A stretch of 64,000 nt of DNA from an uncultured Methanosarcinaceae archaeon (GCA_963727895.1 CAVSHT010000005.1:128001-192000), one strand, 5' to 3'; shown: positions 25,850 through 31,916, counted from the stretch's first letter. Numbers and translations: made by a program. The notes: a model not told the origin generated them from the letters alone.

Positions 25850-26297
25850 ATCTTACAGTATAATTCCAGAGATTTCCTTCAACTTTATCCAGGATAAAAC
25901 CAGCTTTTTCTCCTAACTTAATAGTAGTAGATTTTAAAGGGTAATCTGGATCAGGTAAAAAGATCGAAGAAATTGTCATCAAAGGGTAGTTTATGCACAT
26001 CTCCTTCTACAAGACTGATATTTTTGATATCCCTATATTCTGGTCTGGATAATTTCTTTTTTAGCTGGATTAACATTTTTGGTTGGATGTCAAGAGCGTA
26101 TACTTCTCCTTTAATTCCATTAGCCCTTGCAGCAAAAGTTGTAAACGCTCCACTTCCGCACCCAACCTCGAGAATACGCATTCCTTCTTTTATACCGCTT
26201 CGCTTTATCACTTTATCAGGAGGCTGCAATTTTCTTTTAAAATCGCTATCTAAAAAAGGTCCCATAAATGCTGGTGGTGAAAGTACATAAAATCTTT
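25850..26297 (-). pseudogene. SAM-dependent methyltransferase, 5' end cut by IS1 and internally deleted
   Basis: LEVGCGSG motif I; jumps to PDYPL...GNLWNYTVRF in another frame. Confidence 0.75.
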
Positions 26298-26869
26298 GGC
26301 ATTGTTACTTAAATATATCTAGTTCTTTATTTCATCAATATAATAACCGAGTACTTTAGCATTTCAAGACTCTTCGTATAACACTTTGTCTTTCTTCTCA
26401 ACCTTGCCAAAAAGTGCCTCAATATGCTGTTATATCCTTCAACAGTATACGTCTCTGCTTTTGATTGAGTATGGATCTTTTCTGGACGAAACTCTGCATA
26501 TGCTCTCCAGTGATCTGTCATCACTTCTCCAATCTCTTTTTTCTTCACTTTTTCCCAGAGCAGTTTTCCAGTTTCCGTTCCTCTGCTGCCAAAAGAGCAG
26601 TTGATGAACTTTTTCCCAACTCTATCAACAGCAATCTAGATCCAGCAATATTTTTTTTGTTACCGATGTAAGTGTGCATTTCATCCATTTCAACAATAGA
26701 TATCTCACTTTCACTTTTTAGGTTCTCTAACTCCTGACCAAATTTCTTTATCCATTTTTGGACAGAAACATGACTTACCCCTAAAACGCACATGCTTTTC
26801 TTCGAATAACAAGCACAACTAATGAAAGTACTCTCCGTTCTTTTTTTTGACTATTAAGCCCTCATTACC

Positions 26870-27003
26870 TTGGGCAGTAAGGTTGTCTTGATTTTGGTTA
26901 TTCAAAACCGTTCTAAAACTAATCAGTGAATTGCCATCGAAGGCTCAAGTGTGACTTTGATCACGGATGCTAAATTGGCCTTTTAGGCAATTCCACTGCC
27001 CAA
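26870..27003 (+). ncRNA. Candidate IS110 bridge/seek RNA
   Basis: Closing stem TTGGGCAGT/ACTGCCCAA around two stem-loops that carry target-like and donor-like segments. Confidence 0.7.
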
Positions 27004-27022
27004 ATAAATTTGGCGATCTAAT

Positions 27023-28287
27023 TTGATTTAAGTCATAAACAAAGCTTGTGGTTTAGACATTCACAAACTCTTTTTCATTGCTACAATTTTCAGCAGATCT
27101 GGTGAAAAACAACAGCAACGTTTCAACAGAGATGATGAAGGAATTTTAGCCCTTAAAAATTGGGTAATATCAGAAAAATGTGATGTTGTTGCATGTGAAT
27201 CAACCAGCGACTTTTGGGTTCCGATTCATGATTCATTGATAAAGCATCTAACTGTGATAGTTGGAAATGCGCGAGATATGAAGGTATTTACCCATACAAA
27301 AACAGATAAGATTGACTCAGAAGTCATTGCACAACTTGCACTTAATAATATGATTCAGCCATCAAGAGTTTTTCCAAAGGATCATATAGATTTTAGATCA
27401 TATGTTCGACTTCGGTTAACACTTGTACAAAAAAGAACAGATTTAAAAAATAAAGCTCACTCAATTCTTGCATCTGAAATTCAATTCTTGCATCTGAAAT
27501 GCTACACCTGAATAATGTGCTGACAGACGTTTTTGGCAAGAATGGCAGAATGATCTTATTAGGAATCTCTTCAGGTAAGAGTGTTGATCAGATTATTGCA
27601 AGCCTCTCTCCAAATGTTCGGAAAAAAGCTGCTCAGATAAGAGAAATTCTTGATCGAGAAATTTCTCAAAGTGCTGCATTCAGACTTCAGATCTGTCTGA
27701 AACTCATAAAAAGTCTTGATGATGAACTCGAAGCTTTAGAAACAGAAATTTTCAATTATGCTTCTCGAAATCATAAGCGAGAAATGGAGATTTTAATGTC
27801 AGTTCCAGGTATAGGGGAACTTGGTGCGGCAATTTTACTTGCTGAAATAGGCAACTTTAAGGATTTTTCTTCTGGAAATAAGCTTGCTTCTTGGCTTGGT
27901 CTAGTTCCTAATGTGTATCAATCTGCAGATAAATACTATAACGGCAGAATCACAAAGAGGGGATCAAAAGTAGCAAAGTGGATTCTGACACAGATTGCTC
28001 AAGCAGCAGCAAGAAAGAAGAATAGCAGGTTAAAAGAGTTTTTTAACAGAAAAAAGAAGTCGATTGGACATGCAAAAGCAATTATTGCCTTAGCAAGGAA
28101 AATTGCAACGATACTATGGCATCTTATTACAAACGATGAGATGGACGAAGATGAAACCGGATATCAAAAGGGAGAAATCCAAAAGAGAAAGATTATTGAA
28201 ACTGAGATTTTTTCGGTTGATGAACGGATTAAAATAATTAGTGAAATATTTGCGATTATGGGGAAAAAGGATCAGGAGAGCACGTGA
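27023..28287 (+). pseudogene. IS110 DEDD recombinase, inactivated
   Basis: GLDIHK, ACEST, KTDKID, PGIG and YQSAD; TAA at codon 3 (27029-27031); 20-bp tandem duplication at 27461-27500 shifts the frame. Confidence 0.9.
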
Positions 28288-28910
28288 GGATAATCTCCTC
28301 ATGTACTTTCATGCTAAAATCGTCCTATTGAGCGAAAGCCCAATCCTTCAAGATAGTTGTAAAGCCTGTTTTTTGACAGAGGCGGAAAAAGCAGTTGATT
28401 TTAGCTCTACTGTATAGTTATATCCACAATCAGAGCATTTGTACCGTTGACGCCAGCCAACTATACCATTCTTTTTGTGACTGGAACTATTACATTTTGG
28501 GCAGTTCATGAAGAAATATAGGTTCTCATAATAACTAACTATAGTTAATTATCAAAGCCAAATATAATTTACACATCCAAGGATATTAGTTGCCTAGTCT
28601 AAGTCTTATTGCAAAAGTGATCCCAAAAGATTAACGAAGGTATATTAAAATATCCATGTTAAGATGTGAAATATAGAGACTATCCAAAAGTGGACCCCTT
28701 AAGATTTATGAAATATATTATGGCAAAAAAGAAATTGTACATGGATAAGTGCTCTTTGACAACCTTTAGATGAAAATAGAACCAATTAAATCACTACAAA
28801 AAAACCAAAAAGAAGCCCTTAATACCTTAGAAAGATAATTAAAAAATACTTAATTCTGTATGAAGTAGCAAATAGCAATATAGGCACAAATATTTGATGT
28901 TTTAGATCTA

Positions 28911-28951
28911 TTATTTTACAACTTACAGTTATTTTACAACTTACAGTTATT
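28911..28951. repeat. 18-bp tandem repeat, ~2.3 copies
   Basis: TTATTTTACAACTTACAG twice, then TTATT. Confidence 0.8.
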
Positions 28952-29003
28952 GATTTTTGTTAATTTAAGTCCTACAATAATACAATAATCTGGAAGATAA
29001 AAT

Positions 29004-31177: not shown

Positions 31178-31916
31178 GGCATTGTTAATTAAACATAGTT
31201 AACTCTTTATTTCTGTATTTCATCAATAGAATAACCGAGTACTTTAGCATTTCAAGACTTTTTGTATAACACTTTGTCTTTCTTCTCAATCTTGCTAGAA
31301 AATGCCTCAATATGCTGTTATATCCCTCAACTGTAAATGTTTCTGCTTTTGATTGAGTATGACTCTTTTCTGGAAGAAACTCTGCATATGCTCTCCAGTG
31401 ATCTGTCATTACTTCTCCAATCTCTTTTTTCTTCACTTTTTCCCAGAGTAGTTTTCCAGTTTCTGTTTCTCTGCTACCAAAAGAGCAGTTGATGAACTTT
31501 TTCCCAACTCTATCAACAGCAATCCAGATCCAGCAATATTTTTTTTGTTACCGATGTAAGTGTGCATTTCATCCATTTCAACAATAGATATCTCATTTTC
31601 ACTTTTTAGGTCCTCTAACTCCTGACCAAATTTCTTTATCCATCTTTGGACAGAAACATGACTCACCCCTAAAAATCGTCCTATTGAACGAAAGCCCAAT
31701 CCTTCAAGATAGAGTTGTAAAGCCTGTCTTTTTACAAAAGCGGAAAAAGCAGTTGATTTTAGCTCTACTGTATAGTTATAGCCACAATCAGAGCATTTGT
31801 ACCGTTGACGCCCGCCAACTATACCGTTTTTTTGTGACTGGAACTATTGCATCTGGGGCAGTTCATGAAGAAATATACTTTCTAATAGTATATAACTATG
31901 TTTAAGTATCAAAGCC
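31178..31916 (-). mobile_element. IS1-family element, copy 3
   Basis: Perfect 8-bp TSD GCCATTTT; both ends present; 1-nt shorter A run early in insA. Confidence 0.92.

Follow-up and report, generated by a model that had tools for sequence, protein, structure and literature searches.

A probable bridge RNA gene in the left non-coding end of an IS110-family insertion sequence from a Methanosarcinaceae archaeon

RNA-guided recombination by insertion sequences (IS) of the IS110 family has so far been worked out in bacteria, where bridge RNAs were described in 2024 (IS621; accessible parts of PMC11208160 and PMC11208158, to which the statements on IS621 below also refer). The 64,000-nucleotide (nt) stretch of DNA analysed here, hereafter the window (GCA_963727895.1 CAVSHT010000005.1:128001-192000, from an uncultured Methanosarcinaceae archaeon), contains at 26787-28318, on the + strand, a 1532-base-pair (bp) IS110-family insertion sequence lodged inside a minus-strand IS1-like element, and raises the question of whether such a guide also exists in archaea and which parts of the DNA it would read. 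A preliminary description, made from the sequence alone, had proposed that the 5' non-coding end of the element encodes a bispecific bridge-type RNA. The conserved fold and the covariation of three loop strands with insertion flanks and the right end across homologous elements bear out this proposal, and in our judgement the segment 26870-27003 is very probably the gene for the bridge RNA (seekRNA-type guide) of this archaeal element. Three of the four expected guide segments have covariation support. The RNA and its parts are the following:

26870..27003, + strand: bridge-RNA gene, outer stem P1 (26870-26878 / 26995-27003) around two arms; covariance model R1 gives 168.4 bits for the window copy
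26881..26924, + strand: arm 1, putative target-binding loop, closed by GGTTG 26881-26885 / TAATC 26920-26924 (helix 2 pairing), with a central hairpin at 26896-26909
26888..26895, + strand: right-target guide TTGATTTT (family consensus TCGATTTT), reverse complement of the core and right flank AAAATCG (permutation test)
26912..26919, + strand: left-target guide TCTAAAA (consensus CCTAAAA), same sense as the left flank and core, then C (permutation test)
26928..26993, + strand: arm 2, putative donor-binding loop, with stems GAATTGCC 26928-26935 / GGCAATTC 26986-26993 and AAGGC 26940-26944 / GCCTT 26978-26982
26967..26974, + strand: left-donor guide ATGCTAAA, identical to the right end and core at 28311-28318 (permutation test)
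26841..26858, + strand: A/T-rich stretch some 25 nt before the outer stem, a possible archaeal TATA box judging from its sequence

The RNA lies 84-217 nt inside the left end of the element. Its outer stem is a 9-nt inverted repeat of 100% identity (TTGGGCAGT 26870-26878 / ACTGCCCAA 26995-27003), and the central hairpins of the arms are GGTT-ATTCAA-AACC at 26896-26909 and TGTGA 26950-26954 / TCACG 26961-26965 (GTGA-CTTTGA-TCAC at 26951-26964). All the RNA strings of the preliminary description are in their places, including the outer strands of arm 2 (GTGAATTGCC 26926-26935 / GGCAATTCCAC 26986-26996) and the loop strings TGATTTT (26889-26895), TTCTAAAA (26911-26918) and GTGTG (26949-26953); its position for the empty sister site, by contrast, was one base off (31666-31681 is correct). 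It had overlooked the helix closing loop 1, which was found by RNAalifold on an alignment of 21 sequences and which is 97-99% paired, with compensatory change in 5/5 pairs in alignment A2. Evaluated on a plain MAFFT alignment of 21 relatives, the six-helix structure pairs 88.5% of cells, with 15 of 37 pairs compensatory, and sliding the partners by 1-3 columns lowers the paired cells to 30-51%. Covariance model R1, built from the 21-sequence alignment, was used to align 59 matches, 51 of them distinct; there, 89% of cells pair, 32/37 pairs are compensatory and the slid controls give 34-43%, in an alignment that leans towards the structure because it was fitted to it. G-U pairs are abundant among the 51 sequences (G-U in 43/51 at column 32-175, U-G in 47/51 at column 208-224), which places the RNA on the recombinase (+) strand. 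In all 59 model matches examined with their flanks, the RNA stands upstream of the recombinase gene. Matches to R1 were found in 57 of 151 genomes sampled from the class and in 11 of 151 sampled from the phylum, the source genome being included in both counts. As a variation on the fold, L096, L098 and L100 carry an insertion of about 90 nt within the loop 1 hairpin, giving model matches of 244-246 nt, with the remaining RNA conserved.

The correspondence of the loops with DNA depends on the limits of the element, which are set by the following features:

26787..28318, + strand: IS110-family insertion sequence, 1532 bp, delimited by 21 near-full-length copies with common ends, an empty sister IS1 site and a joint in contigs of public runs
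26327..26786, - strand: IS1-like host element, portion left of the IS110 (the ORF, or open reading frame, of the sister copy matches PF03400)
28320..28520, - strand: IS1-like host element, portion right of the IS110
26783..26786, + strand: A-run at the left junction, a shared core of AA or AAA whose crossover point is ambiguous, from the A counts at the junctions and in the empty site
26787..26791, + strand: left end, CGCAC, equal to the right donor half, for which an RNA guide was not found
28311..28319, + strand: right end ATGCT and A-run core at the right junction
26822..26831, + strand: left arm of the subterminal inverted repeat, ATGAAAGTAC, 10 nt, 100% with 28303-28312 (inverted-repeat search)
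28303..28312, + strand: right arm of the subterminal inverted repeat, GTACTTTCAT (inverted-repeat search)

The window copy reads CCCCTAAAA|CGCAC at its left junction and CATGCTAAA|ATCGTCC at its right one. The sister IS1 copy at about 31185-31905, the ORF of which matches PF03400 DDE_Tnp_IS1 (40.5 bits), has the site uninterrupted (CCCCTAAAAATCGTCC at 31666-31681), and in contigs from two public runs position 26783 is followed directly by 28316, so that 1532 bases are missing, with an ambiguity of 3 letters at the joint. There are 5 A in the empty site and 4 A at each junction. The same genome (assembly of 3.67 Mb, 84% complete) yields 29 matches to the element, of which 21 are near full length with 93-100% identity; 20 copies keep their left end intact, 18 of them having CTAAAA|CGCAC at the left junction and two having CTACAA, and the right end CATGCTAAA| is common to 21/21 near-full-length copies. 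The non-coding ends measure 236 nt on the left (26787-27022) and 31 nt on the right, beyond the stop at 28287. Across relatives, the left end consists of about 5 nt followed by a CATG-based palindrome, of the form CATGAGGC-TCC-GCCTCATG in Methanospirillum and degenerate in the window copy, and a Methanoperedens relative (L065) has an equivalent subterminal inverted repeat of 17 nt (94%). The combination of an upstream non-coding RNA with subterminal inverted repeats, pointed out in the preliminary description, is thus present in both.

Confronted with these ends, loop 1 presents the complement of the top strand 5' and the complement of the bottom strand 3', which is the right-then-left guide order previously proposed; the A-rich core proposed with it is equally found, as a short A-run common to both junctions and to three guides. 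The consensus of the 21 copies is CGATTTT and CCTAAAA, from which the window copy (TGATTTT, TCTAAAA) differs by two C-to-T changes; the family therefore matches its target CCTAAAATCG without wobble, and the G-U pairs invoked in the preliminary description hold for the window copy and not for the family consensus. The two changes would still allow pairing, as G-U. Within the 134-nt RNA region of the window copy, the longest exact matches are 6 nt to the left flank, 6 nt to the reverse-complemented right flank and 8 nt to the right end, lengths reached respectively 791, 622 and 61 times in 5000 dinucleotide shuffles (16%, 12% and 1.2%), and jointly 3 times. The matches are consequently weak individually, as had been conceded from the outset, and jointly unusual; the strong evidence comes from the relatives. 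The base after the left target guide (26919 in the window) is C, or A in the AAG subfamily of genome G050 described below, and is the same as the base with which the left end begins; the left donor guide is followed by U (26975), usually the same base as the first of the right flank. Both resemble handshake positions, by analogy, though on sense-strand guides.

The relatives are homologous recombinase loci from public genomes of Methanosarcina spp., Methanospirillum purgamenti, Methanoculleus, Candidatus Methanoperedens and a few short bacteria-labelled contigs of metagenome-assembled genomes (MAGs), and the methanogen genomes provide about 35 guide variants. Loop strands were taken from fixed model columns and left junctions were located via a motif conserved at the left end, an A-run separated by about 5 nt from CATG. 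Left out before the counts were the duplicates L091 and L111 and locus L030, which is without ends; the right flanks of L020, L024, L092, L103 and L107, which are chimeric, truncated or tandem; and the left flanks of L057, L016 and the second L107 copy. For the left target guide (37 variants, 77 sites), the matched fraction is 0.88, compared with 0.60±0.02 for permuted labels, and 0.65 compared with 0.31±0.045 once A-runs are stripped. The right target guide (25 variants, 66 sites) gives 0.565 compared with 0.364±0.037, with 9/10 matches in L088, L090, L108 and L035 and 10/10 in L033 (independent repeat search). In 16 of 17 relatives, the variable triplet of the left donor guide agrees fully with the right end, which was located by its T-rich context alone (score 2.88 compared with 1.57±0.23); the triplets so matched are GCT, GCC, GTT, AGG, GGG and GGT. 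For this comparison, 29 right-end rows without a unique context match were skipped; six of these were the same site found twice, five of them matching and one having one mismatch. In each of these four comparisons, 0/20000 permutations reached the observed value.

The left guide strings are diverse. They read CCTAAAA in the family of the window copy, ACTAAAA in L020, AGAAAAA in L031 and L056, CAGAAAA in L034, TTAAAAAA in Methanospirillum (4/5 sites) and AATTTAAA in L112, and they include G and C in L106 (CTGCGGAAA), L090 (TTCCAAAA), L104 (CAAGAAA), L065 (TACGAAA) and L103 (TTTATAAAA). Subfamilies with guides of their own also occur within single genomes. Ten copies in G093 have the guides GATAAAA / TAAGT (reverse complement AAAATAAGTA), with left flanks ending in ATAAAA in 8/10 and right flanks starting with TAAG in 4/10; six other copies have AGAAAAA / TAAAAG (AAATAAAAGA), with left flanks ending in GAAAAA in 5/6 and one right flank that is an exact 10-mer. 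Likewise, in G050 the guide (G)ATTGAAA belongs to six copies, each of them preceded by ATTGAAA. The core is AAG in nine more copies of that genome, which have four distinct left flanks: their left guide is CACAAAGA, their donor guide ATGTGAAG and their right guide the reverse complement AGGTCACAGA, and their junctions are CCACAAAG|AGCCC... and ...CATGTG(A/G)AG|TCACAGAG. A core letter was therefore altered jointly in three guides and in the DNA.

Contigs from RNA libraries provide a weak hint of expression of the RNA region. Each of the 24 listed RNA runs contains a fraction of just 0.07-0.08 of the sampled words, and the four examined are Logan contigs of relatives, 85-99% alike. Two contigs from the same sample cover the region, X16 (179 nt, 26862-27017) and X4 (143 nt, 26877-27017), and the RNA-library contigs read CAG at 26912-26914, that is, a different left guide. 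The higher depth of a short contig over the RNA region in one sample (7664 vs 2249) was considered as a sign of a discrete RNA and is not counted as evidence.

Several points weigh against a bridge RNA. The expression data are contigs only, from libraries that can contain DNA, and starts, ends, strand and level cannot be read from them. The fold is recovered from the alignment only: the single-sequence minimum-free-energy fold of 26787-27040 is without the outer stem, with a z-score of only -2.16, and a permissive Rfam search of 26000-29000 returned no relevant match. With respect to the covariation, the choice of guide windows came after the pattern was known, six left junctions (L037, L088, L092, L095, L102 and L112) were placed manually with knowledge of the guide, and the permuted units are related by descent, so the counts of 0/20000 are not strict probabilities; the A-stripped score was given because A-rich guides and flanks raise chance matches. 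Individual matches are poor at L108 left, L113 right, L109 right and L099 left, and the right flanks of the non-IS1 insertions in the source genome match the guide weakly. The frames of the 21 copies in the assembled 84% of the genome include no evidently functional recombinase, because the sole open one, L018, has a tyrosine at an invariant aspartate. Finally, a right donor guide was not found: column scans across the relatives yielded no RNA column that covaries with left-end positions 2-4, and clade-level associations only, although these positions vary (CGCAC, CGTAC, CGAAC, CGGAC, CACAC, CACCC, CCCTC and others). The GTGTG string at 26949, previously read as the guide for the left end CGCAC, is therefore not supported in that role; the 5' strand of loop 2 has only 5 nt (UCAAG in the window copy) and, without a U-run, never complements the A-run core. 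A split guide GUGUG-AC-UUU was also tried and rejected, since by eye it fits the family of the window only and not the M. spelaei, Methanospirillum and f4 clades. Either this lineage has no right donor guide or the guide escaped detection.

This last result gives some credit to an alternative that we hold to be unlikely, though the most serious of those considered, in which the RNA guides the target only: arm 1 would be functional, maybe as a short processed RNA similar to seekRNA, arm 2 would be a scaffold that resembles the right end for some other reason, and the recombinase would read the donor ends mainly through the 10-17-bp subterminal inverted repeats and the left-end palindrome. The long subterminal repeats indeed keep their position across clades, and the seekRNA paper reports RNAs of 70-100 nt with target matches only (accessible parts of PMC11187229). 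Such a scaffold is at odds with the 3' strand of loop 2, which follows the right end in no fewer than 9 states of the triplet, some of them differing by one base between close relatives (ATGCT, ATGCC, ATGTT), and whose core letters change with the core in the AAG subfamily of G050.

The two remaining alternatives, which dispense with a guide RNA altogether, appear very improbable. The loop strings might be additional copies of end and target sequences bound by the recombinase as DNA, with incidental stems; ATGCTAAA repeats the right end directly at the DNA level, and CATGAAA-like motifs recur near both ends. It is hard to reconcile such DNA signals with the 32/37 pairs kept by compensatory changes, with frequent G-U pairs that would be A-C mismatches on the other strand, and with one antisense and one sense guide overlapping at the core, as predicted by pairing to both DNA strands; they also offer no rationale, in terms of DNA binding, for target-derived strings inside the element. 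The region might otherwise be an ordinary structured 5' leader of the recombinase mRNA, controlling translation or stability, and its likeness to the flanks a product of chance in A/T-rich DNA. We regard this as the least probable of all, despite a structure stopping about 20 nt before the TTG start and the weakness, one by one, of the matches in the window copy, considering that these matches occurred jointly in 3/5000 shuffles only and that the guides covary with flanks across about 35 variants. A bridge RNA remains by far the best account of the whole.

On this preferred reading, a course of events can be proposed from the observed fold, guide-DNA correspondences, shared core and site-specific copies. 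The RNA would be transcribed from the + strand, with a start near 26870 from an internal A/T-rich promoter, and would fold so that an outer stem encloses two internal loops, both closed by stems and both containing a central hairpin. Bound by the recombinase, its guides would jointly specify CCTAAAATCG, which hundreds of IS1-like repeats in the genome contain. The DEDD/Ser recombinase would then catalyse the exchange of strands at the A-run, and the element would be inserted without target duplication. For the left end, recognition may go through the subterminal repeats or through its palindrome.

The recombinase gene of the window copy does not seem able to carry out these steps:

27023..28287, + strand: recombinase gene (DEDD RuvC-like and Tnp domains), broken, with a TAA at codon 3 (27029-27031) and a 20-nt tandem duplication (27461-27500)

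The duplication shifts the frame. The window copy thus looks, from its sequence, like a non-autonomous relic in which the guide RNA gene scores intact and the recombinase gene is broken. An open recombinase frame exists in 1/21 copies only, L018 (G000:C4:393022-394533), which would encode a protein of 390 amino acids from a TTG start. It matches the DEDD_Tnp_IS110 and Transposase_20 domain models, PF01548 (63.5 bits) and PF02371 (91.8 bits), as well as the NCBIfam model NF033542 'IS110 family RNA-guided transposase' (261 bits, cut-off 140), and aligns to the solved recombinases of IS621 (E 3.7e-9) and ISCro4 (E 6.7e-8) by its C-terminal domain only. Its residue 95 (protein P0001) is Tyr (TAT), at a position where the relatives' loci have Asp in 58/58 matches to the K-T-D-x-x-D motif; among 13 copies of the genome matched by pattern, the codon is TAT in 5 and GAT in 8. 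By analogy with D102/D105 of IS621 (PMC11208158, accessible parts), the Asp replaced in L018 would be a catalytic residue. According to element length and 15-mer counts, the 20-nt unit is present once in L017 and L018, twice in most of L001-L021 and four times in L014; two units shift the frame, four would restore it, and the relatives from public runs are without the duplication. This variation could be slippage noise or an on/off switch.

How does the system compare with the known ones? It shares with IS621 the position of the RNA in the left non-coding end, upstream of a DEDD/Ser recombinase, the two stem-closed loops with central hairpins, a target within a repeated sequence and the lack of target duplication. 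The target loop of IS621 runs from the stem to the left target guide (50-58), the hairpin and the right target guide (77-80) (PMC11208158), whereas here the right guide precedes the hairpin and the left one follows it; the guide order is reversed relative to IS621 in both loops, the kinds of pairing being equal. Other differences from IS621 are the core (CT in IS621; an A-run, AA or AAA, here, with AAG in one subfamily), the right donor guide, not found here, the outer stem enclosing both arms, the subterminal inverted repeat (2-3 bp in IS621, 10-17 bp here) and the recombinase, which has 390 amino acids and aligns by the C-terminal domain alone. The sigma-70 junction promoter of IS621 does not apply, because the host is archaeal.

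Based on the accessible parts of PMC11187229, which cover the two recognised groups, the top-strand complement comes first in RNAs of the IS1111 family and second in that of ISEc21, an IS110-type element; subterminal repeats and a non-coding region downstream of the gene characterise IS1111 elements, and in IS110-type elements that region is upstream, with few exceptions. As in the IS1111 group (ISEc11, ISPa11, ISKpn4), the top-strand complement here lies 5' of the bottom-strand match, the repeats of 10 and 17 nt fall within the 7-17 bp range, and the C-terminal motif GLVPNVYQS is of the GL-P----S type. Unlike in that group, the RNA region is upstream of the recombinase gene and not downstream, the protein has 390 amino acids instead of 330-350, and the left repeat arm is 36 nt inside the end. 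With the ISEc21 seekRNA, the element shares the upstream non-coding region and target matches to both strands, but the bottom-strand match comes first in ISEc21 and second here; the long left and short right non-coding ends typical of the IS110 group are also present. Following the group definitions of that paper, the family therefore combines the guide order and repeats of the IS1111 type with an RNA position of the IS110 type and a 390-amino-acid recombinase. Rare IS1111 exceptions exist, ISMtsp17 with an upstream region and ISHvo10 with both, and the accessible parts of the same paper contain no guide analysis that we saw for either.

Archaeal IS110 elements have been listed before. ISMac14, ISMba7, ISMba20 and ISMma5 (Methanosarcina, Euryarchaeota, IS110 family) form one 30%-identity cluster in the supplementary table of PMC11208160 and also appear in the identity matrix of PMC11187229; their printed RuvC segment resembles the present protein by eye only (CGIDVHK..., ESTGDYW..., KTDVEDS). 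The accessible parts of the literature searched hold no statement on the guide RNAs of these four elements. They report 662 archaeal homologues of IS110 recombinases (10.1101/2024.06.21.599552) and a catalogue of 32,190 bridge RNAs in 86 models (2026 preprint, 10.64898/2026.10.21.760802), and we found in them no description of an archaeal bridge RNA or of the mixed layout; such large screens may contain it, Supplementary Table 5 of PMC11208160 being outside the material covered.

A more speculative interpretation, which we put forward tentatively and consider less likely to be right than wrong, is that the methanogen elements represent a third architectural class of IS110-family guide systems. 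This class would combine the polarity and long repeats of the IS1111 type with a left-end RNA; three of the four half-sites would be read by RNA and the left end by protein, via a DNA palindrome or repeat, and handshake-like bases would follow the sense-strand guides, with C after CCUAAAA, as at the start of the left end, and U after AUGCUAAA, as at the start of the right flank. If true, it would provide a surviving intermediate stage of the bridge RNA's transfer from one element end to the other and a native programmable recombinase for archaea. Independently of this class, the locus and its relatives add about 35 naturally reprogrammed guide sets, in an RNA that the covariance model finds in more than a third of the sampled genomes of the class and in a layout that mixes the defining traits of both recognised groups. 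They bear on how the guide RNA moved between element ends and on the proposed kinship of IS110 recombinases with archaeal Nop5 and C/D-box ribonucleoproteins, and could seed a recombinase tool native to methanogens. With regard to the spread of the RNA, the loci L036, L057, L058 and L064 are on short MAG contigs labelled Oricola, Deltaproteobacteria and Cloacimonadota, and have the same RNA and proteins 54-84% identical to archaeal ones; these seem likelier to be mis-binned archaeal contigs than to reflect bacterial hosts.

The genome is rich in repeats, and the element explains some of its IS-in-IS structure. With a 121-nt probe spanning the IS1 site (31610-31730), 222 uninterrupted copies are found in the 3.67-Mb assembly, together with 13 left and 16 right junctions exactly at the site. 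The IS1-like element, in this or a derived form, is present in extreme abundance, its two main site variants being CCCCTAAAACTCTTCC (122 copies) and CCCCTAAAAATCGTCC (45 copies). A single insertion event subsequently spread by IS1 transposition is disfavoured, as the occupied copies have at least 4 IS1 junction variants (ATCGTCC, TCATCC, ATCTTCC, CTCTTCC). Because of these variants, and because non-IS1 insertions keep CTAAAA on the left, the identical IS1 insertions likely represent several independent events, with some passenger spread possible besides. L004-L006, L010-L015, L018 and L020 have IS1 sequence on one side only or on neither, and their left flank still ends in CTAAAA; such flanks could result from recombination between copies or from 'half-match' insertion dominated by the left guide. 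Half-match recombination is, by its title, also the subject of a 2026 preprint.

A few copies have a composite structure. L020 (G000:C4:52540-54047) is a chimera, the left end and RNA of which are of the diverged type of L024 (G000:C4:93227-94164), with guide ACTAAAA and a left flank ending in ACTAAAA, the remaining element and the right flank belonging to the main family. L107 (G018:C139) consists of two head-to-tail copies, whose junction of right end, core and left end, TTTCATGGTAAA|CGCCGCATGCG, is similar to a circle junction, and in L103 (G056:C104) two different family members adjoin each other. Lastly, in L040 the region about 1290-1330 nt past the RNA offers two candidate right ends, CATGTCAAA and CATGCTAAA, separated by 25 nt; the latter precedes TGTAG, a string in agreement with the guide of another subfamily (L037).

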